Positions 35,754 to 55,218 are shown, numbered from the stretch's first letter. The stretch: DNA of 64,000 nucleotides from an uncultured Acidobacterium sp. (GCA_964350785.1 CAYGMD010000001.1:6853-70852), one strand, 5' to 3'. Notes: a model not told the origin generated them from the sequence alone. Program-made: numbers and translations.

Positions 35754-36474
35754 CGAGCTGGCCCTTCCGGTTGATGAAGCGATAGCCGGAATGCACGAGG
35801 TCTTCCGGCGGGACGAACTTGTAGCCCGAGAAGATCGACTCCATGGTGGCGTTGGCCTCGACGGTGGACATCAGGACGGCACTGTAGACGTGATGCACGG
35901 CGAAGCCGAGGAGCAGCCACATCACCGCGTGATGAATCCAGCGCACGACCTGCACGCCGCCGAGGAGCGGGGCCAGCGACGCGAACCAGGCAACCGGGGA
36001 GCCGACGTCGGCGCTGCCGCTGCGCAGGGTCAGCCCGGTGAGGATGGCCACGAAGTAAAGGCCGAACACCAGGGTGTAGGTGGCGCCCGCGACGGGATTG
36101 TGGCCGACGAAGCCGGGCGGCTTGCGCATGGCGAACAGGTAAAACTTGATGGTCGGCCACAGGCCGTGGCGCCGCAACGGGTGGACGGGCACGAACTTGT
36201 CCCAGCGCGCGTACTTGTTGCCGGTGAACATCCAGATGATCCGCATGGTCACCGCCGCGATGAAGACATACGCGGTGTAGCCGTGGATCACCTTGACCCA
36301 GCCCATGAAGAACGAGTCACCGGCCGGGCCGGGTACCGTGACGTAGGGGCGGCCGATGTAGAAGCCGGTCATCGCGAGCACGACGATCGACAGGGCGATC
36401 AGCCAGTGCGAGACCCGCACCGGGACCTCCCACACGTAGACCTGAACGCGCCGGGTCGAAGCGACGGCGGTCAT
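35746..36474 (-). CDS. cybH: Ni/Fe-hydrogenase b-type cytochrome subunit
   Basis: Start is MTAVASTRRVQVYVWEVPVRVSHWLIALSIVVLAMTGFYIG.., aa 71 of ORF 35746..36684. Four TM helices with conserved His. ATGA overlap with the large subunit. Confidence 0.9.
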   Translation of the reverse strand: MTAVASTRRVQVYVWEVPVRVSHWLIALSIVVLAMTGFYIGRPYVTVPGPAGDSFFMGWVKVIHGYTAYVFIAAVTMRIIWMFTGNKYARWDKFVPVHPLRRHGLWPTIKFYLFAMRKPPGFVGHNPVAGATYTLVFGLYFVAILTGLTLRSGSADVGSPVAWFASLAPLLGGVQVVRWIHHAVMWLLLGFAVHHVYSAVLMSTVEANATMESIFSGYKFVPPEDLVHSGYRFINRKGQLDE

Positions 36475-39289: not shown

Positions 39290-39444
39290 GGCTCTCCCTC
39301 GCTTTCGCGCCGGCCGCCCGCAGCCGCGATCGGGCCGCGCCATTCCTTGACGCGGACCCAGACGGCGATGGTGATGGGAATGAGCGCGCTCACTGCGGGA
39401 ACGAGCGCCGATGCCGCCGCGAGCTCCTCGTGGTGCCGCCTCAT
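39286..39444 (-). CDS. candidate 52-aa single-TM protein, translationally coupled to the hydrogenase small-subunit gene
   Basis: ATG at 39444 with AGGAG 7 nt upstream. Sequence MRRHHEELAAASALVPAVSALIPITIAVWVRVKEWRG... Its TGA overlaps the small-subunit ATG (ATGA). Codons are GC3-rich. No homology evidence is available. Confidence 0.4.
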   Translation of the reverse strand: MRRHHEELAAASALVPAVSALIPITIAVWVRVKEWRGPIAAAGGRRESEGEP

Positions 39445-39522: not shown

Positions 39523-39538
39523 TGCAAGGCCTACGCCA
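39523..39538 (-). promoter_or_regulatory. candidate sigma-54 (-24/-12) promoter of the hydrogenase operon
   Basis: Minus strand reads TGGCGT-AGGCC-TTGCA with correct GG/GC spacing. It lies about 80 nt upstream of the ATG at 39444. Confidence 0.55.
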
Positions 39539-39574: not shown

Positions 39575-39625
39575 GGTGCGGGCTCCCGCCCCGGATAATT
39601 CGCCGTGACTGCGAACTATTCCGCG

Positions 39626-40324
39626 TCAGCAGACCTCGGCGTCAATTGGCGGTACCGGCACCACATGCGGGGCCACGGTGAGCCGATTGTCGACCCCGGT
39701 GATCCCCGGCGCATGGCTCACGGCCGCCTCGATGGCCTCCAGTTCGGCCCACGAGCCGACCTCGCCCTCGAGCCGGACGACGGACCCTTCCACCAGGATC
39801 GCGACGCCCCGGGCGTCGACGTCGGCGCAGCGGTGCAGGGTCTGGACGATGCGCCGGCGCAAATCGCGAATCGACGACACCGGCTGGACGGTGATGTGGT
39901 TGATGACATCGCGCACACCGCGCACGTGGCGCACCGTTTCGGCCGCCATCGCCCGCACGAAGTAGGCCTCGACCGAGCCTGTAAGCGAGACGTGGCCGGC
40001 GTGAACCACGGCCTGGACCGTGTCGGGAAGGCCGCGCAGGCGCAGCGCTCTGTCGATGTCGGCGGCAATTTCGGGGTCGGTGCGCTCGAGCCGGAGGCGG
40101 ACCTGGATGTCGTTGGCCACCGCCCGCACGCCGTGCACCCGCTTGGCCGCCCGCTCGGCCGCCAGCTTGCCGGCATAGGTGTCGATGAACCCGGTGAGCG
40201 TCACGACGCCGCCGCGGGCGGTCACGCCGATGTCAGTAGCATCGACCTCCGAATCCCACTCAAGTTGGTGAATCACGGAATCGCGAATGATGGTGTTGGC
40301 CTGAAGGGGATTGGCAGTCGGCAT
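39626..40324 (-). CDS. BON-domain (OsmY-like) protein, three BON repeats
   Basis: Start is MPTANPLQANTIIRDSVIHQLEWDSEVDATDIGVTARGGVVTLTGFIDT... The repeated pattern ..V.V..G.V.L.G.V.. occurs three times. Confidence 0.85.
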   Translation of the reverse strand: MPTANPLQANTIIRDSVIHQLEWDSEVDATDIGVTARGGVVTLTGFIDTYAGKLAAERAAKRVHGVRAVANDIQVRLRLERTDPEIAADIDRALRLRGLPDTVQAVVHAGHVSLTGSVEAYFVRAMAAETVRHVRGVRDVINHITVQPVSSIRDLRRRIVQTLHRCADVDARGVAILVEGSVVRLEGEVGSWAELEAIEAAVSHAPGITGVDNRLTVAPHVVPVPPIDAEVC

Positions 40325-40386
40325 GGCAAACGTCCTTTCAGCCCCGGCGATGCCAAACCCGTGCCGTCGGGTATCCTGCAGGTAGC

Positions 40387-40762
40387 ATGGCAACAGCCCC
40401 CCCGCGAATGCCGGCGCCGGTGACCTGGCCGCCGGGTGCGCCCTGATCGAGGTCCACGTCGGCGAGCTGAAACAGCTCTTCAACTCGCTCGACCCGACGC
40501 CGTTTCGCGAACGCGACCTCGATCCCAAGGCCGAGGAGTTCATCGCCGGCTGGGCCAGCGAGCTGCACGGCGACGCACCGTTGTGCCTGGTGGTCCACGT
40601 CGACCGCGGCGACGTCGCGGCGGCCGAGGTGACGATGCTGCGCGAGGCGGTCGGCGGCCGCTCGAGGTGTTCTTGTACGACTGGTGGCCCATCCGCGCCG
40701 AGGCGCGGCGTTACGATCGCCTCAGCGTGATGTCGGTCCGCGTGATTCCGTCACATCAATGA
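40387..40762 (+). pseudogene. disrupted gene of a conserved membrane-protein family (N- and C-terminal parts only)
   Basis: ATG at 40387 runs into a C7 run (40397-40403). With one extra C it would read MATAPPANAGAGDLAAGCALIEVHVGELKQLFNSLDPTPFRERDLDPKAEEFIAGWASEL..LREAVGG. After about 40655 a third frame gives RPLEVFLYDWWPIRAEARRYDRLSVMSVRVI. The TM-rich middle expected from my recollection of this family is absent. Confidence 0.55.
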
Positions 40763-41640
40763 ACCGGCTTCACCTGTAACGTGCGGATGTACTCGACCAG
40801 CGAGTCGATGCGCTGCTTCACGGCGGCTTCATCCCCGCCGTCGTGCGAGCGGGCGAAGGCGTCGCCCCACACCGGCATGTCGGGGCCGCCATGCCCGCGC
40901 ACCGGCGTCCTGCCGTCAATGGTGCGATACACGATCTCCGACGGGTACTCGCCGCCGTTGCGCTTGGCGATCTCGGTGAGGTCGGCCGGCTTGCGGCGCA
41001 TGGCACCTGCCAGCGGGCCGTCACCGCGGCCCGCCGGGCCGTGGCAGGTGGCGCAGTAGGTGCGGAACACCTCGCCACCGGTGACGTGTTGGCGCAGCTC
41101 CGCCTGCGGTTGCGCCGCTGCCGGCGACGCCAGGAAGGCGGCCAGGATGGCCGCGACCACGACGCTGGCTTTGGCGGAGCGGACGGGTTCATCGGCCCGC
41201 GGCTCGCGCACGGTCAGGACCGGACACGGCGCCGTGCGCACCACGCGCTCGGCCACGTTCCCCATCACCGCATGCATCAAGGGCCCGTGCCCGTGCGTGC
41301 CCATCACGATGAGATCGTCGCCGCGCTTGGCGGCGGCCGTGACAATCGCCCGCGGCGGATTGCCGAACAACACCTCCGTCGTCACGGCGACGCCCGCCAG
41401 CTTCGGCACCACTTTCAGGAGTTCGCGCTCGGCCTCGTCACCGAGTTGCTGGCTCCAGTTCGTGTAGGCGATGGCATAGGCGTCCATCGACCCGGTGCTG
41501 AGCGACGGCACCTCGCAGACGTGCAGGAGGTGCAGTGACGCGCCGAACTTGGTGGCCATGGTGTACGCGTAATCGAGGGCGCGTGCGGAGTTCGAACTGA
41601 AGTCCACCGGAACGAGGATGCTCTTGATGTCGGGCGTCAT
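40756..41640 (-). CDS. universal stress protein fused through one TM helix to a class-I c-type cytochrome domain
   Basis: Start is MTPDIKSILVPVDFS.., the last 294 aa of ORF 40756..43092. The Usp domain ends ..ERVVRTAPCPVLTVR. Then ..RSAKASVVVAAILAAFLASPAAAQP.. follows, then ..FRTYCATCHGPAGRGDG.. with ..GGPDMPVWG... There is no in-frame stop between the parts. Confidence 0.8.
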   Translation of the reverse strand: MTPDIKSILVPVDFSSNSARALDYAYTMATKFGASLHLLHVCEVPSLSTGSMDAYAIAYTNWSQQLGDEAERELLKVVPKLAGVAVTTEVLFGNPPRAIVTAAAKRGDDLIVMGTHGHGPLMHAVMGNVAERVVRTAPCPVLTVREPRADEPVRSAKASVVVAAILAAFLASPAAAQPQAELRQHVTGGEVFRTYCATCHGPAGRGDGPLAGAMRRKPADLTEIAKRNGGEYPSEIVYRTIDGRTPVRGHGGPDMPVWGDAFARSHDGGDEAAVKQRIDSLVEYIRTLQVKPVH

Positions 41641-41680: not shown

Positions 41681-41696
41681 GGCAACGTCCATGCCA
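41681..41696 (-). promoter_or_regulatory. candidate sigma-54 (-24/-12) promoter of the Usp-cytochrome c gene
   Basis: Minus strand reads TGGCAT-GGACG-TTGCC, about 40-55 nt upstream of the ATG at 41640. Confidence 0.6.
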
Positions 41697-41775
41697 GCCC
41701 GATCTGTCGGCCGGACGGGCCTGGCGCGGCCGATCGCACTGCGACATTTCCAACGACGTGAGGAAAAATCCGCGC

Positions 41776-41791
41776 TGGCCCGGTCCGTGCA
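41776..41791 (+). promoter_or_regulatory. weaker sigma-54-like element upstream of the acyl-CoA synthetase gene
   Basis: TGGCCC-GGTCC-GTGCA, then GGAGGA, then TTG at 41815. Confidence 0.4.
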
Positions 41792-41814: not shown

Positions 41815-43938
41815 TTGCCTGAGTTGCCGCACCTGCCCCCCGCCCGATCTTTGACGCCGTTTTTTGAGCCGGCCTGCGTGGCCGTCGTCGGCGCCAGCCG
41901 CGAACGCAATAAGATCGGGTCGGAAATCCTCCACAACCTGGTGGCCACCGGGTTCACGGGCAAGGTGGTTCCCGTTCATCCGGCAGCCGACACCATTCAG
42001 GGCCTGACCGCATATCCGCGGGTCGCCGACATTCCATCGGCTGTTGACCTCGCGGTGATCGTGGTGCCGGCGGCGCAGGTGCCGGCGGCGGTCGACGATT
42101 GCCTGGCCAGGCAGGTGCCGGCCATCTGCATCATCAGCGCCGGGTTTGGCGAGTGCAGCGAAGAGGGCCGCGCGATCGAGCGCGAGATGGTGCGCAAGAT
42201 TCGCCAGGCCGGCAGCCGCCTGATTGGCCCCAACTGCATGGGCCTGCTCAATACCGATGCGCGCTTCGCGTTGAACGCCACCTTCTCGCCGGTGTATCCG
42301 CCGGCCGGCGGCGTGGCCATGTCGACGCAAAGCGGCGCCCTGGGCCTGGCGATTCTCGACTACGCGCGACAGTTCAACATCGGCATCTCGAGTTTCGTCT
42401 CGGTCGGCAACAAGGCCGACGTCTCGGGCAACGATCTGTTGCTGTACTGGGAGACCGATCCCAGCACGGCGGTGATCCTGCTGTACCTGGAAAGCTTTGG
42501 TAACCCGTCGAAGTTCAGCCGCATTGCCCGGCGCATCAGCCGCACCAAGCCGATCGTCGCGTTGAAGTCGGGGCGCTCCCCGGTTGGCGCGCGCGCGGCC
42601 GCCTCGCACACCGGCGCGCTGGCCTCGTCCGACGACTTCGTCGACGCGCTCTTTCACCAGGCGGGAGTCATCCGCACCAACACGGTCACCGAGTTGTTCG
42701 ACGTGGCGACCCTGCTGTCGCGGCAGCCGCTGCCGAGCGGCCGCCGCGTGGCGATTCTGACCAACGCCGGCGGCCCCGGCATCCTGGCCGCCGACGCGTG
42801 CCTCGCGCACGGCCTCGTGGCCGCCGAGCTCACTCCCGCCACGAAGGCCGCGCTCAGGGCGTTCCTGCCGGCCGCGGCGGCCGTCAACAACCCGGTCGAC
42901 ATGCTGGCCTCGGCCTCGCCGGCCCAGTACCGGCAGGCACTGGGCCGGCTGCTCGGCGATCCCAATGTCGACAGCGCCATCGTGATCTTCATTCCCCCGC
43001 TCATCACGAGCGCGGATGAAGTGGCGACGGCCATTGCCGGCGCGGCGGCCGGATCGGGCAAACCCGTGGCCGGCGTCTTCATGCGCAGCCACGCGGCTCC
43101 GGGGTCGCTGGCGGCGGTACCGTGCTATGCCTTCCCCGAACCGGCGGCCATTGCCTTGTCACGCGTCGCGGGCTACGGCGAATGGCGGCGCCAGCCGCTC
43201 GGCGAGGTGCCGCCGTTCCCCGACTTGCAGGCCGGACTGGCGCGCGCCGTCGTCGACACCGCGGTGCACCGCGGCGGCGGCTGGCTGTCGGCGGTCGAGG
43301 CCAATGCCCTGATCTCGGCGGCCGGCATCGCGACGCCGCGGTCGCACTTCGCCACGTCGGTGGATGAAGCGGTCGAGGCCGCCGCCAAGCTCGGCCTGCC
43401 CGTGGCGGTCAAGGCCGTCGGCGCGGCCCTGCTCCACAAGACCGAGCACCGCGCGCTGCGGCTCAACCTCGGTTCGCGGGCCGCCGTCCGCCAGGCGGCC
43501 GTCGAGTTGACCCAGGCCCTGGGCGATCGCATGGACGGCTTGTTGGTGCAGACGATGGTGAGCGGTGGCGCCGAGATGATGATCGGCGCGATCAACGACC
43601 CGATCTTCGGCCACGTCGTCGTCTGCGGCAGTGGTGGCGTGCTGGTCGATCTGCTGGCCGACTCGGCGTGCCGGCTGCATCCGGTCACCGATCGCGATGC
43701 GCACGAGATGGTCGAGTCGTTGAAGGGCGTGCGCCTGCTGCGCGGGTTCCGGGGCGCCGAGCACGCCGACGAGCCGGCGTTCAGGGACGCCATTCTGCGG
43801 ATCTCGGCGCTGGTCGGCCTGTGCCCGGAAATCCAGGAACTCGATGTGAATCCCATGAAGGTGCTGCCCGGGGGCGTGTCGGCCATCGACGTGCGCGTGC
43901 GCGTCAACGGAGGAAGTGAGGAAGTGAGAAGCTTCTGA
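41815..43938 (+). CDS. ADP-forming acetyl/acyl-CoA synthetase (fused alpha-beta, NDP-forming family)
   Basis: TTG start 5 nt after GGAGGA, aa 48 of ORF 41674..43938. CoA-binding ..VAVVGASRERNKIGSEI.., ..LIGPNCMGLLN.., ..SFVSVGNKADVSGNDLL.. and a C-terminal ATP-grasp part. Confidence 0.85.
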   Translation: MPELPHLPPARSLTPFFEPACVAVVGASRERNKIGSEILHNLVATGFTGKVVPVHPAADTIQGLTAYPRVADIPSAVDLAVIVVPAAQVPAAVDDCLARQVPAICIISAGFGECSEEGRAIEREMVRKIRQAGSRLIGPNCMGLLNTDARFALNATFSPVYPPAGGVAMSTQSGALGLAILDYARQFNIGISSFVSVGNKADVSGNDLLLYWETDPSTAVILLYLESFGNPSKFSRIARRISRTKPIVALKSGRSPVGARAAASHTGALASSDDFVDALFHQAGVIRTNTVTELFDVATLLSRQPLPSGRRVAILTNAGGPGILAADACLAHGLVAAELTPATKAALRAFLPAAAAVNNPVDMLASASPAQYRQALGRLLGDPNVDSAIVIFIPPLITSADEVATAIAGAAAGSGKPVAGVFMRSHAAPGSLAAVPCYAFPEPAAIALSRVAGYGEWRRQPLGEVPPFPDLQAGLARAVVDTAVHRGGGWLSAVEANALISAAGIATPRSHFATSVDEAVEAAAKLGLPVAVKAVGAALLHKTEHRALRLNLGSRAAVRQAAVELTQALGDRMDGLLVQTMVSGGAEMMIGAINDPIFGHVVVCGSGGVLVDLLADSACRLHPVTDRDAHEMVESLKGVRLLRGFRGAEHADEPAFRDAILRISALVGLCPEIQELDVNPMKVLPGGVSAIDVRVRVNGGSEEVRSF

Positions 43939-43960: not shown

Positions 43961-44452
43961 CTAAGCTTTCGCCGCCGCGATCAGCGCGTCGGGGGCAATG
44001 AAGTCCCGCTCGTTCGTGCGCACCGCCAGTACCGGGCACGGCGCCGTGCGCACCACCCGCTCGGCGGCGCTGCCCAGCAACAACTGCTTCACGGCGCCGC
44101 GGCCGTGCGTGCCAACGACGATCAGGTCGATGGCGTTGGCCTTGGCGTACTCGGTGATGCCGCCGGGGACGTTGAAGCTGGTTTGCACCACGCCGACCAC
44201 CTTGAGGGTCTTGCGATCGTCCTCGGTGATCAAGGCGTCGAGGTCGCGGTGCGCAGCCTTCTCCAGGTCGCGCTGGAGATCCGGGATCGCAAAGCCCACT
44301 TCGGGGCTGTAGCGCATCATCACGTCCTCCACGACGTGCAGCACGTGGAGGGTGGCGTTGTACGAGCGGGCCAGATCACGGCCATACGCCATGGCGACAG
44401 CCGACGGCTCACCGAAGTCGGTGGCAACGAGGATGTTCTTCAGCACAACCAT
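43961..44452 (-). CDS. universal stress protein (UspA family)
   Basis: MVVLKNILVATDFGEPS.. and ..LIVVGTHGRGAVKQLLLGSAAERVVRTAPCPVLAVR... Confidence 0.9.
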   Translation of the reverse strand: MVVLKNILVATDFGEPSAVAMAYGRDLARSYNATLHVLHVVEDVMMRYSPEVGFAIPDLQRDLEKAAHRDLDALITEDDRKTLKVVGVVQTSFNVPGGITEYAKANAIDLIVVGTHGRGAVKQLLLGSAAERVVRTAPCPVLAVRTNERDFIAPDALIAAAKA

Positions 44453-44501: not shown

Positions 44502-44517
44502 AGCACAATACATGCCA
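44502..44517 (-). promoter_or_regulatory. candidate sigma-54 (-24/-12) promoter of the Usp gene
   Basis: Minus strand reads TGGCAT-GTATT-GTGCT, about 50-65 nt upstream of the ATG at 44452. Confidence 0.55.
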
Positions 44518-44562: not shown

Positions 44563-45036
44563 ATGAAAGCGATCGCGGGCGCGTTCGAACGGTTTTCCGG
44601 GCTCGATACCCCGGCGCCGGTCGTGACGGCGCGAGAGATTCTGAGGACGGCCGTGAAAAAACTCCCACTCCACGTCCTTGTCGTCGATGACGAACCGTTG
44701 ATTCGCTGGTCGGTAACCGAAACCCTTGCCGACCTTGGCCTTGACGTCGAACAGGCCGACTGCGCCGCCTCGGCGCTGCAGACCATTACGACCACGGCCC
44801 TGCCCTTCGATGTCATCGTCCTCGACCTCCGGTTGCCCGACATGCGGGACCTCTCGCTGCTGGCGACCATCCGGCAGCTGCTGCCCGAGACGCCGGTGGT
44901 GTTGATGACCGCATTCGGCACCCCCGAGATCATGGCCAACGCGCGCCAGCTGGGCGTGCGCGCCGTGCTGAACAAGCCGTTTGAACTCAGTGAGTTGAGC
45001 CGCGTCGTGGTGGACGCGTTGACGCCGGTGCGTTGA
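44563..45036 (+). CDS. stand-alone response-regulator receiver protein
   Basis: ..VLVVDDEPLIRWSV.., ..DVIVLDLRLPD.. and ..LNKPF... About 35 aa of N-terminal extension. No output domain. Confidence 0.85.
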   Translation: MKAIAGAFERFSGLDTPAPVVTAREILRTAVKKLPLHVLVVDDEPLIRWSVTETLADLGLDVEQADCAASALQTITTTALPFDVIVLDLRLPDMRDLSLLATIRQLLPETPVVLMTAFGTPEIMANARQLGVRAVLNKPFELSELSRVVVDALTPVR

Positions 45037-45093
45037 AGGCCGGCTCGGACTTGGGCCATACTTGGCGCGTCGCGAAATGCGACGCCCCCCACC

Positions 45094-45558
45094 ATGATTA
45101 ACCCCTCTTTCGGACACCAGACGCCGCCGGGCACCGGAATGCCGCCGGGTCCGCTGGAGAACGCGACCGGGCCGGCCGAGCGGCCGGCGCCGCGCACCGC
45201 CCTGGTCGTCGACGACGAGGCGCTCATCCGCTGGTCGGTCAGCGAGACGCTCGGTGAGTTGGGCTTCGACGTCGCGCAGGCCGCCGACGGCGCCTCGGCA
45301 ATGAGCGCCATTGCCGGCGCCGCCGCGGCCTTCGACGTCGTGGTGCTCGACCTGCGGTTGCCCGATGTGAACGACCTGTCGCTGCTGGGCCACGTGCGCG
45401 AACTGCTGCCGGCGGCCATGGTGGTGCTGATGACCGCCTTTGGCACCGCCGAAGTGGTGGCCGGCGCCCAGGCCCTCGGCGTCGCCGGCATCCTCAACAA
45501 ACCCTTCGAACTCGCCGAACTCAGCCGCCTGCTGACGCGCGACGGGCCGGCTTCGTAA
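45094..45558 (+). CDS. stand-alone response-regulator receiver protein (paralogue of 44563..45036)
   Basis: ..ALVVDDEALIRWSV.., ..DVVVLDLRLPD.. and ..LNKPFELAELSRLL... Confidence 0.85.
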   Translation: MINPSFGHQTPPGTGMPPGPLENATGPAERPAPRTALVVDDEALIRWSVSETLGELGFDVAQAADGASAMSAIAGAAAAFDVVVLDLRLPDVNDLSLLGHVRELLPAAMVVLMTAFGTAEVVAGAQALGVAGILNKPFELAELSRLLTRDGPAS

Positions 45559-46928
45559 TGGCCAATGCCACGATCCTGATCGTCGACGACGAGCAGTTGA
45601 TCCGCTGGTCGCTGGCCAGCCGCCTGAAGGACGAAGGTTACCGGATCCTCGAAGCCGGCACCGCCGCCGAAGCCCTGTCGCAACACCGCGAGGGCGTCGA
45701 CCTGGTGCTGCTCGACATCGGCCTGCCCGACGCCAGCGGGTTGTCGGTGCTCAAGCAGATCAAGGAATCGGATCCCGATACGCTGGTCATCATGCTGACC
45801 GGCCAGACCGGCGTGCAGACCGCGGTCGAGGCGATGAAGAACGGCGCCTTTCATTACGCCAACAAGCCGTTCGATCTCGACGAGGTCGTGCTGCTGGTCG
45901 AGAAGGCGCTCGAGACGACGCAGTTGCGCCGCGAGGTCCGCACGCTGCGGGCCCGGCAGGCCCAGCCCTACGGCCCCGAAAGCATCGTCGGCGAAAGCGC
46001 GCCGATCGTGGCGGTGCGGGCCATGCTGCAGAAGATCGGCGTCAGCCCCGCGTCGACCGTGCTGCTGACCGGCGAGAGCGGCACCGGCAAGGACCTGGCC
46101 GCCAAGGTCATTCACTACAGCAGCAACCGCGCCGCGCGGCCGTTCATGAACATCACCTGCTCGGCGCTGCCCGAGACGCTGCTCGAAAGCGAGCTGTTCG
46201 GCCACGAGCGCGGCGCCTTCACCGGCGCCGACCGGCAGAAACGCGGCCTGCTCGAGTCGGCCGACGGCGGCACGGTGTTCCTCGACGAGATCGGCGAGAT
46301 GGTGCCGCTGCTGCAGGCCAAGCTGCTGCGGTTCCTCGAGGAGAAGTCGTTCAAGCGCGTGGGCGGCTCGGCCGACGTCAAGGTCGACGTGCGCGTGATC
46401 GCCGCGACCAACCGTTCGTTGCAGGAAGAGGTCAGGAAGGGCCACTTCCGCGAAGACCTGTTCTATCGCCTCAACGTGATGGCGGTGCCGCTGCCGCCGT
46501 TGCGCGAGCGGCGGGACGACATCCCGCGGCTGCTGCGCCACTACATCGACCTGTTCAACGTCGAGTTCCGCAAGAAGATCGTGGGCGTGTCGCCCGGCGC
46601 GATGAAGGCGCTGCAGGCCTACGCCTGGCCCGGCAACGTCCGCGAATTGCGCAACGCCGTCGAGCGGGCCATGCTGCTGACCGAGAGCGCCGAGTTGTCG
46701 GAGGCGCAGTTTGCCATGCTCGGGGCGCCGGAGGGCGAGTTGTCGACCGGCATGGGCTTGCCGGCCAGCGGTATCAACCTCGAGGAGCTCGAACGGTCGC
46801 TGGTGGTGCAGGCGCTCGAACGCAGCGGCTGGAACCAGACCAAGGCGGCGACGCTGCTCGGCCTCAACCGCGACCAGATCCGCTACCGCATCGAGAAGTT
46901 CAAGCTGGAGAAGGCAACTCCACGGTAA
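45558..46928 (+). CDS. sigma-54-dependent Fis-family response regulator (NtrC-type bEBP)
   Basis: REC domain (..ILIVDDEQLIRWSL.., ..LVLLDIGLPD..), AAA+ domain with ..GESGTGKD.. and the ..GAFTGA.. sigma-54 contact loop, and a C-terminal Fis-type HTH ..NQTKAATLLGLNRDQIRYRIEKF... Confidence 0.93.
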   Translation: MANATILIVDDEQLIRWSLASRLKDEGYRILEAGTAAEALSQHREGVDLVLLDIGLPDASGLSVLKQIKESDPDTLVIMLTGQTGVQTAVEAMKNGAFHYANKPFDLDEVVLLVEKALETTQLRREVRTLRARQAQPYGPESIVGESAPIVAVRAMLQKIGVSPASTVLLTGESGTGKDLAAKVIHYSSNRAARPFMNITCSALPETLLESELFGHERGAFTGADRQKRGLLESADGGTVFLDEIGEMVPLLQAKLLRFLEEKSFKRVGGSADVKVDVRVIAATNRSLQEEVRKGHFREDLFYRLNVMAVPLPPLRERRDDIPRLLRHYIDLFNVEFRKKIVGVSPGAMKALQAYAWPGNVRELRNAVERAMLLTESAELSEAQFAMLGAPEGELSTGMGLPASGINLEELERSLVVQALERSGWNQTKAATLLGLNRDQIRYRIEKFKLEKATPR

Positions 46929-47985
46929 CGGTCGTGCCGCCGCCCGGCGGACACGTCACGCTAATCCGGCCCTCGTGCAGTTCGACCAGGCGCTTGGCGG
47001 TGGCCAGGCCCAGGCCGGTGCCGCGCGCCTTGGTGGTCTTGAACGGGCGAAACAGCATGGCGCGGATTTCGGGGTGAATGCCCGGGCCCTGGTCAATGAC
47101 GTCCACCCGCAACCAGCCGTCCGCCGGCGTCATCGCCACCGTGATGGCGCCCTTGCCGTGCATGGCCTGCGCCGAGTTGATCAACAGGTTCTGAAACACG
47201 ATGGTCATCAGCAGCGGGTCGAGCGGCATGGCCGGGGCGTCGCCGGCGATGGTGACGTCGAGGCCGCCGAAGGCCGGGTCGGTCTTCAACAGGCCCACCA
47301 CCTCGGAGAGCAGGGCGCGCAGGTCGGTGGCCGCCGGCCTGGGCTGTGGCGGCCGCGCGAACACCAGCAGGTCCTGGATCAGGTTGTTCAGCGCGTCGAT
47401 GCGGGCGATGATCTCCTTGATGATGGCGCCGTCACCGCCGTCGCCTTTCATGCGCGAGCCGATTACCTGGATGGCGCCGCGCACGGCCGCCAGCGGGTTC
47501 TTGATTTCGTGGGCAATCACCGCGGCCATCTCGCCCAGGCGGGCCAGGGCGCTCGCCTCGCGCAGGCGGTCCTCGAGCTCGGCCCGGCTCGACAGGTCAT
47601 GCAGGATGCCGGTGAAGTGCGGCTCGCCGTCAATCTCCATGCGGCCGACCGACAGGTGCAGGGGGAAGGTGTGGCCGTCCTTGCGGCGGCCGGTCACGGC
47701 CCGGCCGATGCCGATGATCTTGCGCTCGCCGGTGCGGAGGTGGTTCGCCAGGTAGCCGTCATGTTGCGAGTGATCCGGCTCGGGCATCAGGATGCTGACG
47801 TTGCGGCCTGTCGCCTCGGCCTCGCTGTACCCGAACATCTGCTGGGCCGCGGCGTTGAACACCTCAATGCGGCCTTTCGAGTCGATCACGATAATGCCGT
47901 CGACGGCGGCGTCGATCACGGCGCGCCAGCGCGCCTCGGCAATGCGGCCGGCGTCCATCAGCTTGTGCGGTTCGGTTTCACTCAT
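46900..47985 (-). CDS. FixL-like haem-PAS sensor histidine kinase (cytoplasmic)
   Basis: The PAS region ..GIIVIDSKGRIEVFNAAAQQMFGYSEAEATGRNVSILMPEPDHSQHDGYLANHLRTGERKIIGIGRAVTGRRKDGHTFPLHLSVG..GEPHFTGILHDL.. closely parallels my recollection of the Bradyrhizobium FixL haem-PAS domain, including the proximal His in ..SQHD... H-box ..AHEIKNPL... N/G1/G2 boxes are present. Confidence 0.85.
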   Translation of the reverse strand: MSETEPHKLMDAGRIAEARWRAVIDAAVDGIIVIDSKGRIEVFNAAAQQMFGYSEAEATGRNVSILMPEPDHSQHDGYLANHLRTGERKIIGIGRAVTGRRKDGHTFPLHLSVGRMEIDGEPHFTGILHDLSSRAELEDRLREASALARLGEMAAVIAHEIKNPLAAVRGAIQVIGSRMKGDGGDGAIIKEIIARIDALNNLIQDLLVFARPPQPRPAATDLRALLSEVVGLLKTDPAFGGLDVTIAGDAPAMPLDPLLMTIVFQNLLINSAQAMHGKGAITVAMTPADGWLRVDVIDQGPGIHPEIRAMLFRPFKTTKARGTGLGLATAKRLVELHEGRISVTCPPGGGTTVTVELPSPA

Positions 47986-48002
47986 GCGGGGTTCTCACAA
48001 CG

Positions 48003-48037
48003 AATAGCAGATTGCAGCGGGTTTGTAATCGGCTATT
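48003..48037. promoter_or_regulatory. imperfect 35-bp palindrome just upstream of the kinase start
   Basis: AATAGCAGATTGCAGCGGGTTTGTAATCGGCTATT. Outer arms are AATAGC/GCTATT and inner arms GATTGCA/TGTAATC. GC is low here. Confidence 0.4.
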
Positions 48038-48089
48038 TGTTGGGACCCTCGCGCAGGCGCCCCTGCCGGGAAGTTAGGGCCATCGGCGT

Positions 48090-48524
48090 CTACGAGTTGT
48101 CCCACTCTTCCTCCCCGCGGGCCTTGCGCACCTCGCGATTGGACTTGTGTTCGGGCGTGCGGGCCAGCAGGTCCAGCAGGTCGGAAACCGTCACGATGCC
48201 GGCGACCTTGCCGTTGGCCGAAGTCACCACCAGCGATCCGACCGAGCGGCCCTTCATCAGCGTGGCCGCCCGCCGGATCGGCGTGCGGGTGGTCACGGTC
48301 AGCACCGGGCTGGTCATGAGGTCGCCCACCGTCCACTGGCCCAGCACCTTGGGCAACTTCGCGCCGCCGAGATCCCGATCAGAGACGATGCCCTGAAGTC
48401 TGGCGCCGTCGGTCACCACCAGATGGTGAATCTTCTTTTGCCGCATGCGAGTCTTCGCTTCGGACGCAGCCACCTTCGGCTTGACGGTCTCAACGGCCTT
48501 GCTCATCACTTCGTAGACTCTCAT
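48090..48524 (-). CDS. CBS-pair domain protein
   Basis: Start is MRVYEVMSKAVETV.. after AGGAGAG. There are two CBS motifs (..HHLVVTDGARLQGIVSDRDL.. and ..GSLVVTSANGKVAGIVTVSDLL..). Confidence 0.85.
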   Translation of the reverse strand: MRVYEVMSKAVETVKPKVAASEAKTRMRQKKIHHLVVTDGARLQGIVSDRDLGGAKLPKVLGQWTVGDLMTSPVLTVTTRTPIRRAATLMKGRSVGSLVVTSANGKVAGIVTVSDLLDLLARTPEHKSNREVRKARGEEEWDNS

Positions 48525-48561: not shown

Positions 48562-48577
48562 TGCAAAGTCGCTGCCG
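48562..48577 (-). promoter_or_regulatory. weaker sigma-54-like element upstream of the CBS gene
   Basis: Minus strand reads CGGCAG-CGACT-TTGCA, about 40-55 nt upstream of the ATG at 48524. Confidence 0.4.
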
Positions 48578-48695
48578 TCGCGCGTCAGGGGAATGCGGCC
48601 CGCGGCCCCTTCCCGGACGCGAGGAATACTCCCCAAGATGGGGGGTTTTTCCCTCTGGATCTGCGCTATCGGTGTCACCTGTGGCTCGTGGCGGT

Positions 48696-48711
48696 TGGCA
48701 TGGAGGATGCT
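48696..48711 (+). promoter_or_regulatory. candidate sigma-54 (-24/-12) promoter
   Basis: TGGCAT-GGAGG-ATGCT, 22 nt upstream of the ATG at 48733. Confidence 0.5.
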
Positions 48712-48732: not shown

Positions 48733-49191
48733 ATGTTGAGGATCTTCGCCATCAGCGTGTTGGGATTCGTGCTCGTTCAGGGGAGCGCGGCGGCACAGAC
48801 ACCGCAGGAACAGGACCGTATCCTCCGGATGTTCCAGCAAAGCGTCGCCACGGCCGCCGCCATCAAGGACCCGCACATTTTCACCCTGCCTGTGGCGACG
48901 GTCTTCCGCCAGGTGATCGCCAGGACCCTGGACGAGCAGCCCCACGTTTCGCACCTGGCCGGCGCCGGCACCAAGTTGCCGCTCGCGCACCACCCGGTGG
49001 TGTTCGAGCCGTTCCCAGCCACGGAACTGCATGAGTTCCCGGCGCTGCTGGAACGGGCGCTGCCCCCCCTTCCCCCGGGGCTCGAGTACCGGTTGATCGG
49101 CAACGACCTGGTGCTGCGCGCGGTTGGGGACGATGTGATTGTCGCGGTGTTGCGCGACGCGGTCGGCCGCGCCGTCACCACCCGGCGTTGA
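48733..49191 (+). CDS. secreted hypothetical protein (paralogue of 25860..26474)
   Basis: MLRIFAISVLGFVLVQGSAAAQ signal peptide. ..ALPPLPPGLEYRLIGNDLVLR.. is shared with the 26-kb ORF. Confidence 0.6.
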   Translation: MLRIFAISVLGFVLVQGSAAAQTPQEQDRILRMFQQSVATAAAIKDPHIFTLPVATVFRQVIARTLDEQPHVSHLAGAGTKLPLAHHPVVFEPFPATELHEFPALLERALPPLPPGLEYRLIGNDLVLRAVGDDVIVAVLRDAVGRAVTTRR

Positions 49192-49209
49192 GAGCGCAAA
49201 GGAGGCGTC

Positions 49210-49458
49210 ATGCCGGCCCAAGTCAGTGAACCCTGCACGGTGTATGTGTTCGATCGATCGCCGGCGAGCGCGCTCGAGCTCCGCATCCGCGGTGAGTTCC
49301 GCGAGATGCCGGGCATGCGCCTGAAGGCGGAACAGGCCATGCGCCTGTGGTCGATCGATCACGCCACCTGCCAGCAGGCCCTGGACGACCTGGTCCGGGA
49401 AGGCTTTCTGCAGCGCGACGCCATGGGCCGCTACGCGCGTGCACACAGCGGCTATTGA
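49210..49458 (+). CDS. small hypothetical protein, possibly winged-helix-like
   Basis: AAGGAGG 6 nt upstream. 82 aa. ..MPGMRLKAEQAMRLWSIDHATCQQALDDLVREGFLQRDAMGRY... Confidence 0.5.
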   Translation: MPAQVSEPCTVYVFDRSPASALELRIRGEFREMPGMRLKAEQAMRLWSIDHATCQQALDDLVREGFLQRDAMGRYARAHSGY

Positions 49459-49476
49459 CCGCATCGGAGAAACGTC

Positions 49477-50031
49477 ATGCGCACACTTCCCGCACTCGCC
49501 GCCGCCCTGGCCCTGGCCGCAACCGCCGCCTGCGCCAGCATGAGCGTCAGCTCTCACATCGAGCGCGGCGTCAACTTCGCCGAGTACGTGACCTGGGACT
49601 GGAGCCCGCCCGACAACCTGCCGGTCGGCGATCCCCGCCTCGACAACAACCCATTCTTCAACGACTACCTGCAGGGCGCCGTCGAGAAGCAGCTCACGGC
49701 CAAGGGCTTCACCCGCGTGGCCGAAGGCCGGCCCGCCGACCTGGTGGTGCACTACCACGCCAGCGTCAACCAGCGGCTCGACGTCTATCGCGCCGACCAG
49801 GAGTACGGCTACTGCTACGGCGACTGCCGGCCGCAGGTCGTCGACTTCGAACAAGGCACGCTGGTGATCGACATCGTCGACGTCAAGACCAAGAAGGTGG
49901 TGTGGCGCGGCTGGGCGCAGGACACGATGACGGGGATCATCGACAACCAGGGCCGCCTGGAGGAGCAGGTGGACGAAGGCGTGACGAAGATGTTCCAGTT
50001 GCTGCCGCGCGGAGGAGCGGCGCTGCGCTAG
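49477..50031 (+). CDS. DUF4136-family lipoprotein
   Basis: Lipobox ..LAATAAC... ..ADLVVHYHAS.. and ..GTLVIDIVDVKTKKVVWRGWA.. are typical of DUF4136. Confidence 0.75.
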   Translation: MRTLPALAAALALAATAACASMSVSSHIERGVNFAEYVTWDWSPPDNLPVGDPRLDNNPFFNDYLQGAVEKQLTAKGFTRVAEGRPADLVVHYHASVNQRLDVYRADQEYGYCYGDCRPQVVDFEQGTLVIDIVDVKTKKVVWRGWAQDTMTGIIDNQGRLEEQVDEGVTKMFQLLPRGGAALR

Positions 50032-50761: not shown

Positions 50762-51046
50762 GTCGATCGCGAGGCTAACATGGGCGTCAGAAATCGTGCA
50801 TGGCGGCCGGCGGGAACGCGGCCCTGAGTGCGATCGCTCGCATGCGCCGCGAGAGGTGCATGAACTCGTCGACCTTCTTGAGCGGCGCCAGCAAAGGTAC
50901 TCGCCGAGCCACAACGAGGTGAGCCGTGGGGATCCTCCGAGATTCCGGAGTCCTGGTGACGGCGGAAGAGGGGATCTTTCCGCGAATTCTTGAAATATTC
51001 CCCGCATTTTCGCGGCTTGGGGCGGACCCCACGGCGAGCGAGCAGG

Positions 51047-51062
51047 CGGCTGGATTCTTGCA
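51047..51062 (+). promoter_or_regulatory. weak sigma-54-like element upstream of the cytochrome locus
   Basis: CGGCTG-GATTC-TTGCA, about 100 nt upstream of the ATG at 51160. Confidence 0.35.
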
Positions 51063-51159
51063 GTAGTGACCAGCAACCAGCATCGATGGTGGGCAATCCG
51101 GACCGAACGTGTCCGGCATAGGAATTGATGGCGTCCGCCAAATCAGGAGCGAGGATCCA

Positions 51160-51510
51160 ATGATCAATTTAAACCGTCTCGGTTGGCTGGCAGTAGTCGC
51201 GCTGATCGGATCGCCGCTGGCGGCGCCCAGCGCGGCGGCCCAGACCCCGGCAGAGAAAGGCGCGGCTGTGTTTGCGGCGCAGAAGTGCTCGCTCTGCCAT
51301 TCGCTGGACGGCAAGGGCAACGCGAAGGGCGTCCTCGACGGCGTCGGCACGAAGTTGACGGCGGCCGAGATTCGCCAGTGGATCGTGACGCCGGCCGAGA
51401 TGGCCGCCAAGGCGAACGCGACCCGGAAGCCGGCGATGAAAGCCTTCCCGAACCTGGCGAAAGACGACCTCGACGCCCTGGTTGCGTTCCTCTCGTCGAA
51501 GAAGAAATAG
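51160..51510 (+). CDS. monohaem class-I cytochrome c, exported
   Basis: Start is MINLNRLGWLAVVALIGSPLAAPSAAA. One CSLCH motif and a distal ..KPAMKAF... Confidence 0.85.
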   Translation: MINLNRLGWLAVVALIGSPLAAPSAAAQTPAEKGAAVFAAQKCSLCHSLDGKGNAKGVLDGVGTKLTAAEIRQWIVTPAEMAAKANATRKPAMKAFPNLAKDDLDALVAFLSSKKK

Positions 51511-51552
51511 CATTTTTCTGTCGTCGTACTCTTACTTGTTTTCGGAGGCGTT

Positions 51553-51888
51553 ATGTTGCGGTTCTGCTCACTGACACTGATGATCCTCTTCGGCGCCCTG
51601 GTCCTGTCGGCCAGCCCGGCATCCGCGCAGGCCGACGGCGCGAAAGTCTACGCAGCGCAGAAGTGCTCGATGTGCCATTCGGTTGCCGGCGTCGGCAACA
51701 AGAAGCTGCCGCTCGATGGCGTCGGCACGAAGCTGAGCGCCGATCAGATCCGCGAGTGGATCGTCACCCCTGCCGAGGCCGCGAAGAAGGCCAACTCGAC
51801 GGCCAAGCCGGCCATGCGGGCGTATGCCTCGCTGCCGAAGGCCGATGTGGATGCGCTGGTCGCCTACATGAAGTCGCTCACCAAGTAG
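51553..51888 (+). CDS. monohaem class-I cytochrome c, exported (paralogue)
   Basis: Signal peptide, CSMCH and ..KPAMRAY... Shares ..LDGVGTKL.A..IR.WIVTPAE.A.KAN.T.. with the upstream gene. Confidence 0.85.
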   Translation: MLRFCSLTLMILFGALVLSASPASAQADGAKVYAAQKCSMCHSVAGVGNKKLPLDGVGTKLSADQIREWIVTPAEAAKKANSTAKPAMRAYASLPKADVDALVAYMKSLTK

Positions 51889-51895
51889 GTGATGC

Positions 51896-52921
51896 ATGTC
51901 GGCCCGGTTCGTGTTCGTGGTTGGTGCGCTCGCGGTCTGCCTGCTGGCAGCCGCGGCGCCCGCCGCAGCGCCGGCGGCGCCCGCTGACGACGACTGCCTG
52001 GCGTGTCACGGCGACAGCACGGCGACTCGAGCCAACGGCTCGAGCGTCGCGGTGGCGCCGGACCTGCTCGCCAAGTCGGTCCACGGCACGCTCACCTGCG
52101 TGAGCTGTCATGCCGGCCTGGCCAAGACCACCGAGTGGCCGCATCCCGAGAAAGTCGAGGCGGTCGCCTGCTCGACCTGCCACGGGCAGGAAGGCAGCAA
52201 CTACGACGACAGCGTGCACGGCCGGGCCGTCCTCAAGAGCGGCCTGGCGGTCGCGCCCCGCTGCGGCACCTGCCACGGCACCCACAACATCCAGCCCCCA
52301 TCCAACACCGACAGCAGCGTCCATCGCGCCAGGATCGTCGGCACCTGCACGACGTGCCACGAGGGCATTGCGCCGTGGTACGCGAAGAGCGTGCACGCGC
52401 AGCCGCTCGGGCCCGCGGGCGGCGCGGCGGCGGTGTGCTCCGACTGCCATACCGCGCATCGGATCCAGCGCGGCGACACCGACGGCTGGCGCCTGGCGGT
52501 GATCGACGAATGCGGCACGTGCCACTTACAGCGCATCTCGTCGTACCGCGACAACTTCCATGGCCAGAAGACCACGCTCGGCTCGACCCGCACCGCCACC
52601 TGCAGCAGCTGCCACGATCATCACGCGATCCTGCCGGCGGGCAATCCGGCCTCGACCGTCGCGCCGCAGAATCTCGTGGCCACCTGCCGCGGCTGCCATC
52701 CGCAGGCGAGCGCCGCGTTCGTCAAGTACGACCCGCACGCCGACAAGCACGACCCGGTCCGCAGCGCGCCGGTCTACTGGACCTATCGGTCCATGCAGGT
52801 GCTGCTGCTCGGGGTGTTCGCGTTTTTCGGGGCGCACACGCTGCTCTGGTTCCCGCGGTCGTACCGGGCGCGGCGTGAGCGGCGCGCGGCCGCGGCGGCC
52901 ACAGGGGACACCTCATCATGA
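51896..52921 (+). CDS. nonahaem c-type cytochrome with a C-terminal TM helix
   Basis: Signal peptide. Nine CxxCH motifs (CLACH, CVSCH, CSTCH, CGTCH, CTTCH, CSDCH, CGTCH, CSSCH, CRGCH). TM ..VLLLGVFAFFGAHTLLWF... Confidence 0.85.
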   Translation: MSARFVFVVGALAVCLLAAAAPAAAPAAPADDDCLACHGDSTATRANGSSVAVAPDLLAKSVHGTLTCVSCHAGLAKTTEWPHPEKVEAVACSTCHGQEGSNYDDSVHGRAVLKSGLAVAPRCGTCHGTHNIQPPSNTDSSVHRARIVGTCTTCHEGIAPWYAKSVHAQPLGPAGGAAAVCSDCHTAHRIQRGDTDGWRLAVIDECGTCHLQRISSYRDNFHGQKTTLGSTRTATCSSCHDHHAILPAGNPASTVAPQNLVATCRGCHPQASAAFVKYDPHADKHDPVRSAPVYWTYRSMQVLLLGVFAFFGAHTLLWFPRSYRARRERRAAAAATGDTSS

Positions 52922-53736
52922 CCTCCGGCGCCCGTCACATCGTCCGGTTCAAGCCGTATCAGCGGGCGATGCACTTCGTCCTGTTCACCAGCTTTCTCGG
53001 CCTGGCGGCGACCGGCCTGCCGTTGATGTTCAGCGACCGCCCATGGGCGGGCACGCTGGCGCGCGGCCTCGGCGGCATCCAGATGGCCGGCGTGCTGCAC
53101 CGGATCTTCGCGGTGATGCTGCTGGCGCTGTTCGCGGGCCATCTCGCCGAGTTGGCGTGGCGGCTCACGCGGCGCAAGGAGCACGGCCTGCTGTGGGGGC
53201 CGACCTCGATGATCCCGCAGCCGCACGACGCGGTGCAGATCTGGCAGCACGTCCTGTGGTTCGTCGGCAAGGCCGCGCGGCCCCACTTCGACCGCTTCAC
53301 CTACTGGGAGAAGTTCGATTACTGGGCCGTCGTCTGGGGCATGGTCATCATCGGCGGATCGGGACTGTTGCTCTGGTTCCCGGAATTCTTCGCCACGTTT
53401 TTCCCGGGCTGGATCTACAACGTGGCACTGATCCTGCACGGTGAAGAAGCCCTTCTGGCGACGGGCTTTATCTTCACGATACATTTCTTCAACAGCCACT
53501 TCCGGCCCGAGAAGTTCCCGATGGACATGGTGATGTTCACGGGGCGGGTGACCGAGGAGGAGCTGCGGAGCGAGCGCCCCGCCGAGTACGCGCGGATGGC
53601 GAACGACGGCACGCTCGACACGCTGGTGTCACCGCCCGCCCCCGGCTGGCTTTCGCTGGCCGGCCGCGTGGTCGGCGGCGCGGCCGTGGCTCTCGGTCTC
53701 GTGTTGCTGGTGTTCATCCTTGTGGGGACGTACTAA
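52918..53736 (+). CDS. b-type cytochrome membrane subunit (FdnI/HydC/Ni-Fe-hydrogenase cytochrome b-like)
   Basis: ATGA overlap with the nonahaem gene. ..IVRFKPYQRAMHFVLFTSFLGLAATGLPL.. resembles the family N-terminal motif. About 5 TM helices with His in TM1, TM2 and TM4/5. Confidence 0.75.
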   Translation: MTSGARHIVRFKPYQRAMHFVLFTSFLGLAATGLPLMFSDRPWAGTLARGLGGIQMAGVLHRIFAVMLLALFAGHLAELAWRLTRRKEHGLLWGPTSMIPQPHDAVQIWQHVLWFVGKAARPHFDRFTYWEKFDYWAVVWGMVIIGGSGLLLWFPEFFATFFPGWIYNVALILHGEEALLATGFIFTIHFFNSHFRPEKFPMDMVMFTGRVTEEELRSERPAEYARMANDGTLDTLVSPPAPGWLSLAGRVVGGAAVALGLVLLVFILVGTY

Positions 53737-55137: not shown

Positions 55138-55218
55138 CGAGGGTACGTCGGAGAAGAAGCGGTGGAAATTCCCCACCGATCGGGAAGATTCAGCACCGGC
55201 CCGGTCCGGAGGACTTAT

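Follow-up and report, generated by a model that had tools for sequence, protein, structure and literature searches.

In the classical FixL-FixJ system of Bradyrhizobium and Sinorhizobium, a sensor kinase with a haem-binding PAS domain acts on FixJ, a response regulator of the LuxR family. The mycobacterial kinases DosS and DosT are haem gas sensors as well, and the DosR regulon is rich in universal stress proteins (USPs), with a CBS-pair protein and a hydrogenase, for survival at low oxygen; the Dos sensors are of the GAF-haem type and DosR is a LuxR-type regulator with sigma-70 promoters. Here we analyse a 64,000-nucleotide (nt) stretch of DNA from an uncultured Acidobacterium sp. (GCA_964350785.1, CAYGMD010000001.1:6853-70852; hereafter the window), in which a sensor histidine kinase with a FixL-like PAS domain is encoded beside a sigma-54 activator and two receiver-only proteins, here called RR1 and RR2. 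The nearest database relatives carry the label Vicinamibacterales, a group of abundant, rarely cultured soil bacteria in the phylum Acidobacteriota. We consider it probable that these genes form a branched two-component system of a Vicinamibacterales-like acidobacterium, made by domain recombination and governing a hypoxia-induced sigma-54 regulon.

In the NmpRSTU system of Myxococcus xanthus, a haem-based oxygen sensor kinase ultimately controls an NtrC-like activator of an oxygen-limitation regulon, and the receiver-only protein NmpT has been proposed to be a phosphate sink (PMC11841059). The sensor, NmpU, is a protoglobin that is active with oxygen, and its signal is inverted by way of a second, hybrid kinase, NmpS (PMC11841059). 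The NtrY-NtrX systems of Brucella and Rhodobacter combine a haem-PAS kinase with an NtrC-family regulator and are linked to low-oxygen physiology (summarised in PMC7240162). FixT of Caulobacter crescentus is a receiver-only feedback modulator that directly inhibits FixL by means of a four-cysteine Fe-S cluster (PMC7078487). Our full-text literature search returned no description of a FixL-type PAS kinase coupled to a sigma-54 activator, nor any of FixL-like systems in Acidobacteria.

Sensor domain of the kinase

Pfam divides the kinase into PAS (residues 19-130, nt 47596-47931), HisKA (150-212) and HATPase_c (256-359) domains. Among PDB structures the PAS domain matched Bradyrhizobium FixL (BjFixL) with E-values of 1.7e-40 (8js5) and 5.6e-40 (1dp6), and RmFixL (1d06) with 4e-34. 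The alignment to BjFixL covers 132 residues without a gap, at 50% identity and 72% similarity, and retains the proximal histidine of the haem pocket (H200 in BjFixL, H75 here), Y203 (Y78), the distal arginine of the GIGR motif (R220, R95) and the hydrophobic residues I215, I216, I218 and L236 (I90, I91, I93 and L111). His75, Arg95 and the GIGR context were invariant in 25 of 25 orthologue-class proteins of about 361 residues; in FixL, the arginine equivalent to R95 hydrogen-bonds bound oxygen. Judged by these residues, the kinase PAS very likely binds haem. A preliminary description of the locus had recognised the FixL-like domain by its proximal histidine and GIGR arginine, and the comparison with FixL structures bears this out for most of the pocket, the changed positions being the equivalents of R206 (N81), Y207 (H82) and H214 (K89). 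It had also taken the kinase to be soluble, in agreement with the absence of any transmembrane segment (maximum Kyte-Doolittle value of a 19-residue window, 1.29).

The three substitutions, which are found in the orthologue class, would suit a different signal. The haem-PAS might report nitric oxide, carbon monoxide or the redox state of the haem iron, or might work with the opposite polarity, the kinase being active when liganded, as in the globin-coupled AfGcHK/NmpU type. Precedents exist in the haem-PAS of Brucella abortus NtrY, reported as a redox sensor (cited in PMC7240162), and in NmpU, which is activated by oxygen (PMC11841059). However, the distal R95 and the isoleucine and leucine residues of the pocket are invariant, and the USPs, CBS protein, hydrogenase and ATP-yielding acetyl-CoA synthetase encoded around the kinase suit induction at low oxygen. 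We regard these other signals and the reversed polarity as unlikely; most likely, low oxygen activates the kinase and thereby the sigma-54 activator.

Tandem pairs of FixL-like haem-PAS domains occur in the paralogous Vicinamibacterales kinases P0046, P0047, P0049 and P0054 (L004, L012, L018, L020 and L024; L numbers are our codes for the database contigs compared, P numbers for proteins). Each of these domains bears the His...G[IV]GR signature, and the family has thousands of database relatives.

Transmitter class of the kinase

The remainder of the kinase resembles proteins outside the FixL family. When residues 140-361 alone were searched against PDB, ZraS scored 116 bits, compared with 62 bits for the FixL core (chimeric entries 4gcz and 8a7f). 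The top NCBIfam match was AtoS, with 239 bits over residues 21-359 (cut-off 646); the ZraS model scored 158 bits (cut-off 479), and the rhizobial FixL model (NF041777) aligned over residues 7-178 only, with 237.8 bits against a cut-off of 850. Neither the kinase nor the activator could be called an orthologue of AtoSC, ZraSR or NtrBC, all NCBIfam scores being under the equivalog cut-offs. The H-box, AHEIKNPL with phospho-His159, fits the class pattern HE[IV][KR]NPL, and relatives that share only the core (30-35% identity) typically have a same-strand sigma-54 activator as the next gene. The transmitter half is thus of the ZraS/AtoS/NtrB class, without a FixL-class core, and the kinase is a recombinant that carries a FixL-type sensor on such a transmitter.

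Because of this transmitter class, an NtrC/AtoC-class activator is the expected partner, and the wiring is not the unusual one it had been thought to be. The earlier picture of a FixL without FixJ holds for the FixL-type haem-PAS and for the sigma-54 activator as output, and fails for the transmitter, which is of the ZraS/AtoS class; the protein is not a FixL with a swapped partner. Among four testable characters of FixL, the kinase has the haem-PAS pocket and lacks the equivalog score, the transmitter and a FixJ partner within the window. The characters of the NtrB/AtoS/ZraS and NtrC classes were found throughout: the H-box, a REC-AAA+ partner with a Fis-type HTH, and -24/-12 targets with a candidate enhancer upstream.

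Under classical FixL logic, a LuxR-family partner of the FixJ type would be encoded elsewhere and the neighbouring receivers would be incidental. Relatives of the kinase do appear in several source databases under the name 'sensor kinase FixL', in some with the addition 'LuxR family'. Against this stand the transmitter, which lies outside the FixL class, and the conserved synteny with the activator and receiver-only genes; paralogues of the kinase, moreover, pair with receiver-only proteins and not with LuxR-type regulators (see below). Beyond the three receivers, a tblastn search of the 64-kb window detected no receiver domain, and it found a single kinase core and a single sigma-54 ATPase; none of the three receivers has a LuxR output (Pfam, tblastn). 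A distant FixJ is accordingly a highly improbable explanation, and we keep to the local receivers as partners. Hydrogen-sensing control of the hydrogenase, of the HoxJ/HoxA type, was considered and set aside: the kinase PAS is FixL-type, and another kinase, activator or receiver that could serve it was not detectable in the window.

Response regulators

The genes for RR1, RR2 and the activator are consecutive, the RR2 stop overlapping the activator start (45558). As the preliminary description had it, all three receivers share the motif DDExLIRWS, two of them are receiver-only proteins and the third is a sigma-54 activator. The activator has a Walker A motif (GESGTGK) at position 172 and GAFTGA at 219. 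The activator matched the NCBIfam model of AtoC best (461 bits, cut-off 714), ahead of NtrC (407, cut-off 559) and NtrX (391.7, cut-off 600), and its best PDB matches were NtrC1/NtrC4-type regulators. RR1 and RR2 have the make-up of single-domain (CheY-like) response regulators; they share 54% identity with one another and 37% with the activator receiver, and their best structure and family matches are NtrC/AtoC receivers. All three proteins retain the acidic pair, phospho-Asp, Thr and Lys, and in RR1 and RR2 the motifs DD, LD(L), MT(A) and K(PF) are present throughout the orthologues (the RR1-like gene of L011 was left out of the comparisons of residues and extensions).

The shared motif had been regarded as unusual. 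It lies in the alpha-1 helix (DDEPLIRWSV in RR1), which also has LIRWS in the orthologues of all three receivers; as DDDSSIRWVL of enteric NtrC aligns with it, the motif is no oddity but an NtrC-type kinase-docking helix. The N-terminal extensions of about 35 residues described earlier are present as open reading frame (ORF) sequence, the receiver domain beginning at residue 37-38. Conservation is limited to the last 14 or so of about 36 residues in RR1 (AREILRTAVKK), and the RR2 extension is low-complexity and variable. A FixT-like Fe-S receiver was rejected for both proteins, since the four-cysteine motif is absent (one cysteine in RR1, none in RR2).

Conservation of the linkage

Chance co-location is unlikely, as kinase, activator and receiver are found together in every close orthologous locus that we examined. 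The order kinase / activator-RR2-RR1 / USP / acetyl-CoA synthetase is kept in L001, L002/L003, L008, L009 and L021 (79-91% identity), and the kinase, activator and an RR1-like receiver are adjacent in L001-L003, L005, L006, L008-L011, L013, L021 and L026. Three short contigs with the same sequence as the window (L005-L007) show the arrangement as far as they extend, L006 ending inside RR2 and L007 inside the activator gene. The activator is accompanied by a single RR1-like receiver in L010, L011 and L026, which are metagenome-assembled genomes labelled Acidimicrobiia, and in L013, where the kinase has two PAS domains. L022 (Planctomycetota) also has the three genes linked, but their order differs and is divergent, and in L092 kinase and activator lie on one strand. 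In L053 (Ca. Sulfomarinibacter), a single ORF (3997-6903, + strand) encodes GAF - haem-PAS (MPEPDHSQHHSY...IGIGR) - PAS - sigma-54 AAA+ - HTH. This protein would be a one-component haem-sensing enhancer-binding protein without a kinase step, and the fusion ties a FixL-type sensor directly to sigma-54 activation.

About ten further loci encode paralogous kinases, some 60% identical, with two or three PAS domains. No activator was found beside them in the flanking sequence retrieved (8 kb, or less where the contig ends sooner). An RR1-like receiver-only gene follows all nine that have a complete neighbouring gene (L004, L012, L015-L018, L020, L023 and L024); the products are 47-55% identical to RR1 and mostly 133-141 residues long, and in eight of the nine the alpha-1 helix is VLVVEDExLIRWSIAETLA. 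The DHp helix after the phospho-His, AHEVKNPLA[A/G]VRGAIQVIG, is nearly alike in orthologues and paralogues. Since nine paralogous kinases pair with an RR1-like receiver and none has an activator nearby, a receiver-only protein is the usual partner of this kinase family and the activator an addition in the present subclade; 'extra', the earlier word for RR1 and RR2, does not fit them. The near-identical DHp helix, taken with the LIRWS alpha-1 helix of all three local receivers, leads to the conclusion that each of them displays the surface recognised by the kinase family.

The same pairings, on the same strand and without a nearby activator, also suggest that the receiver-only proteins could be the main output, acting through protein-protein contacts, with the activator as a secondary branch or one served mainly by a paralogous kinase. 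The 84-95% identity of RR1 orthologues to RR1 and the DHp helix common to the paralogues argue in the same direction. However, the activator has been kept beside the kinase in every orthologous locus through rearrangements, its class of ATPase is also joined to the sensor by direct domain fusion, and its alpha-1 helix has the same LIRWS motif; moreover, the dense local sigma-54 regulon requires an activator, and this one is the sole candidate in 64 kb. We judge a main output through RR1 and RR2 to be somewhat unlikely, and retain a branched pathway that includes the activator.

A reciprocal scan with the activator found relatives (62-70% identity) whose neighbouring kinases belong to the same core family (37-57% identity). 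In most cases the kinase bears another, non-haem PAS (DHRIINSGYHPKEF...NRAKDG.YWVDTTIVP; L090, L093-L096 and L100), and membrane segments occur in some. These loci give direct evidence that sensors have been exchanged while the backbone was conserved.

The kinase and activator genes are convergent, and their 3' ends overlap by 29 nt in the window (46900-46928). Overlaps of 26-29 nt are kept in L001, L002, L008, L009 and L021 and leave no room for an intervening terminator; antisense effects or transcriptional interference are possible there.

Sigma-54 promoters and candidate enhancer

Matches to the sigma-54 consensus TGGCAC-N5-TTGCW, with up to two mismatches, were not enriched in the window (21, compared with 27.5 expected). 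The consensus scan was replaced by a position weight matrix (PWM) scan with positional checks and cross-locus conservation, which gave six matches of at least 13 bits versus 1.8 in shuffled sequence (p about 0.01). All but one of them are intergenic and aimed at a gene start 20-250 nt away; they precede the hydrogenase (39538), USP-cytochrome c (41696), USP (44517) and sec152 (48696) genes and an unknown gene (26518). Across seven orthologous loci, most matches of 14-15 bits precede the orthologous USP, USP-cytochrome c, BON, sec152 and p82 genes. The core of the USP promoter, TGGCAY-N7-GCT, is invariant in nine loci despite diverged flanks, and weaker elements in the opposite orientation, before the acetyl-CoA synthetase, CBS and RR1 genes, are conserved as well.

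The -24/-12-like element of the CBS gene, downstream of which the kinase lies, had been seen in the preliminary description, which raised autoregulation. It is weak and conserved in orthologous loci, with a candidate enhancer 60 nt upstream, so autoregulation through it is possible; by read-through, the CBS promoter probably also serves the kinase gene.

Alignment of the CBS/sec152 intergenic region revealed a 30-bp inverted repeat, GGAAW-N3-YCCC-N6-GGGR-N3-WTTCC, with six matches in the window at up to three mismatches versus 0.22 expected. Measured from the repeat centre to the first base of the -24 element, the spacing is 58.5-60.5 nt for sec152, CBS, USP-cytochrome c, the unknown gene after 27590 and the weak promoter at 51047, and 86.5 nt for the third USP gene. 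Pairing of repeat and promoter at 57-61 nt recurs in L001, L002, L021 and the Planctomycetota locus L022, where a perfect repeat lies 61 nt from an 18-bit promoter; the pairing is wider (66-83 nt) in L008 and L011. A GC-rich hairpin, GGCCCCGGTAATTGGGGCC (2605-2634, + strand), was rejected as an enhancer: it is a chance match to the pattern, terminator-like and just 3' of a gene ending at 2591.

Gene content of the locus

Positions of the genes, promoter elements and repeats are given in Table 1. With the genes that it precedes, for stress proteins, hydrogenase and cytochromes, the conserved promoter set has the look of a regulon for low oxygen. Survival at low oxygen fits because the putative regulon holds USPs, a CBS-pair protein, an ATP-yielding acetyl-CoA synthetase, an uptake-type hydrogenase and cytochromes.

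Table 1. Genes, -24/-12 elements and inverted repeats at the kinase locus and around it (positions in the window).
Feature	Position	Strand	Remarks
RR1	44563-45036	+	receiver-only, 157 aa; Pfam Response_reg only
RR2	45094-45558	+	receiver-only, 154 aa; RR1 paralogue; Pfam Response_reg only
Sigma-54 activator	45558-46928	+	456 aa; REC, Sigma54_activat, HTH_8 (Pfam); NtrC/AtoC class
Soluble sensor histidine kinase	46900-47985	-	361 aa; PAS, HisKA, HATPase_c (Pfam)
CBS-pair protein gene	48090-48524	-	same strand as kinase, directly upstream, 104-nt gap
sec152 operon	48733-50031	+	152-aa predicted secreted protein, 82-aa 'p82', DUF4136 protein
USP gene	43961-44452	-	promoter TGGCATGTATTGTGCT in front
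ADP-forming acetyl-CoA synthetase gene	41815-43938	+	probable TTG start at 41815
USP-cytochrome c fusion gene	40756-41640	-
BON-domain protein gene	39626-40324	-
[NiFe]-hydrogenase small-subunit, large-subunit and cytochrome b genes	35746-39346	-
Third USP gene	26631-27416
-24/-12 TGGCATGTATTGTGCT	44502-44517	-	before USP gene; core invariant in nine loci
-24/-12-like TGGCCCGATTATTGAA	44535-44550	+	13 nt before RR1 start; conserved; -12 is GA, not GC
-24/-12 CGGCAGCGACTTTGCA	48562-48577	-	before CBS gene; weak, 9.1 bits; conserved in L002, L009, L021
-24/-12 TGGCATGGAGGATGCT	48696-48711	+	before sec152 operon; strong, 15.2 bits
-24/-12 TGGCATGGACGTTGCC	41681-41696	-	before USP-cytochrome c gene; 14.9 bits
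-24/-12 TGGCCCGGTCCGTGCA	41776-41791	+	before acetyl-CoA synthetase gene; weaker, conserved
-24/-12 CGGCACGGGTTTGGCA	40351-40366	-	before BON gene; L002 orthologue TGGCATGTGTTTGGCA, 15 bits
-24/-12 TGGCGTAGGCCTTGCA	39523-39538	-	before hydrogenase genes; 13.2 bits
-24/-12 element	27429-27444	-	before third USP gene
-24/-12 element	27590-27605	+	before unknown gene ending 28646
-24/-12 CGGCTGGATTCTTGCA	51047-51062	+	ahead of cytochrome cluster; 8.8 bits
Inverted repeat GGAATACTCCCCAAGATGGGGGGTTTTTCC	48623-48652		58.5 and 60.5 nt from the two divergent -24/-12 elements (sec152, CBS)
Inverted repeat, weak match	41742-41771		60.5 nt upstream of USP-cytochrome c promoter; block conserved in six loci
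Inverted repeat GGATAATTCGCCGTGACTGCGAACTATTCC	39593-39622		69.5 nt upstream of hydrogenase promoter
Inverted repeat GGAAATAACGCCGGGATCGGGGAGATTTCC	27516-27545		between divergent elements 27429-27444 (-) and 27590-27605 (+)
Inverted repeat, weaker	50972-51001		60.5 nt from CGGCTGGATTCTTGCA; ahead of cytochrome cluster

The hydrogenase is of the uptake type, with a Tat signal on the small subunit, and its locus is complete (29457-39346, - strand), with small and large subunits, cytochrome b, a HycI-type protease, HypB, HypF, HypD and HypE. The cytochrome c domain of the USP fusion is C-terminal, and the fusion is kept in orthologous loci. At 51109-58624 (+ strand), a gene cluster resembles a porin-cytochrome module for extracellular electron transfer; it encodes two mono-haem cytochromes c, a 341-residue multihaem protein, a cytochrome b, a 466-residue NapC/NirT-like protein, a 345-residue Paired_CXXCH multihaem cytochrome and an 804-residue outer-membrane porin of the MtrB/PioB type. 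Between the CBS and kinase genes of L002 (7411-7980), L009 and L021 sits a 189-residue gene that is missing from the window (47986-48089), where apparently only its last few bases are left.

Proposed mechanism

With its haem unliganded, the kinase would autophosphorylate on His159, and oxygen bound to the ferrous haem would silence it. It would phosphorylate the sigma-54 activator and both receiver-only proteins. The phosphorylated activator would then oligomerise on the 30-bp repeat, whose centre lies some 59 nt upstream from the -24 element, and open the sigma-54 promoters of the three USP genes (one of them the cytochrome c fusion), the CBS gene (probably together with the kinase), the ADP-forming acetyl-CoA synthetase, the BON protein, the operon of the predicted secreted and DUF4136 proteins, the [NiFe]-hydrogenase and probably the cytochrome cluster. 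The regulon would be on in hypoxia, a polarity suggested by FixL and by the content of the regulon. RR1 and RR2, presumably co-transcribed with the activator, could drain phosphate or feed back on the kinase and so set the threshold and the shut-off kinetics; their role is the least certain part of the proposal. With probable read-through from the CBS promoter into the kinase gene, and a conserved, atypical -24/-12 element at the RR1 operon, the circuit may be self-reinforcing.

Several observations weigh against this proposal. The R206-Y207 pair, which has been implicated in FixL switching, is [N/H/R]-H in the 25 orthologue-class proteins, while the paralogues of about 60% identity retain R-Y; because R206 is substituted, the switching chemistry may differ from that of FixL. 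The near-identical DHp helix predicts cross-talk, and paralogous kinases could feed the three receivers. Upstream of the kinase gene, where the regions differ between loci, no shared -24/-12 element or other block was found, and the link between the kinase and CBS genes is not universal; in three loci the 189-residue gene intervenes. The RR1-side element (TGGCSCGATTNTTGAW) has the sigma-54 spacing but a non-canonical GA at -12, and could be an atypical promoter whose mRNA would be nearly leaderless, or else a site at which a protein binds for the USP promoter on the other strand. No convincing inverted repeat was found at the USP/RR1 or BON promoters; the conserved block at USP/RR1, TTCAATAATCGGGCCA, reads on the RR1 strand as that -24/-12 element with GA at -12. 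The repeat is assigned to the activator, as its candidate enhancer, by co-occurrence.

More tentatively, and with rather more doubt than confidence, the locus might represent a hypoxia-survival programme of the Vicinamibacterales that runs through sigma-54. A haem-PAS kinase would split phosphate between the activator and duplicated receiver-only proteins, the activator working from the 30-bp enhancer on USPs, a CBS protein, substrate-level ATP synthesis by the ADP-forming acetyl-CoA synthetase, hydrogen oxidation by the hydrogenase and a porin-cytochrome conduit, in convergence with DosR. On that wider reading, haem-PAS kinases, including those with tandem haem-PAS domains, would have expanded greatly, with receiver-only proteins as their ancestral partners.

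If the branched system is real, it would be the first concrete, testable oxygen-sensing circuit for a dominant, poorly studied soil phylum, in which the sensor, its three receivers and an enhancer motif are defined, along with some ten target promoters. Through it, hypoxia in soil aggregates would be linked to hydrogen oxidation, to ATP synthesis by fermentation, to stress proteins and possibly to extracellular electron transfer. The locus is also a clean natural case of sensor-domain swapping on a fixed kinase/activator backbone, because the backbone also occurs with a non-haem PAS and the haem-PAS is also fused to a sigma-54 ATPase, and the branched pathway is suited to the study of receiver-only proteins as sinks or modulators. 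No principle is overturned, modular recombination of PAS sensors and transmitters being expected.

Comparison with known systems

With FixL-FixJ the kinase shares a homologous haem-PAS (proximal histidine, distal arginine, hydrophobic pocket) and probably oxygen sensing. Unlike FixL, it has a single PAS, no membrane anchor, a replaced R206-Y207 pair and a transmitter of the ZraS/AtoS class, and in place of FixJ, which is absent from the window, the output consists of a sigma-54 activator and receiver-only proteins. AtoSC, ZraSR and NtrBC share the H-box HE[IV]KNPL, the REC-AAA+(GAFTGA)-HTH_8 partner, the NtrC-type alpha-1 helix and -24/-12 promoters with an inverted-repeat candidate enhancer. 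The present system differs from them in its cytoplasmic FixL-type haem-PAS sensor, in the two additional receiver-only paralogues and in the position of the kinase gene, which is convergent with the regulator operon and not inside it. NtrY is a membrane protein with a HAMP domain, and the NtrX model is a weaker match to our activator. FixT resembles RR1 and RR2 as a single-domain receiver attached to a haem-PAS kinase pathway; RR1 and RR2 differ in having no four-cysteine motif and in keeping all phospho-acceptor residues.

By function, NmpRSTU is the closest analogue, differing from the present system in that here the sensor is a PAS and not a protoglobin, one kinase acts without a relay, and there are two single-domain receiver-only proteins. 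To the DosR regulon the likeness is one of content, by analogy alone, the wiring not being homologous.

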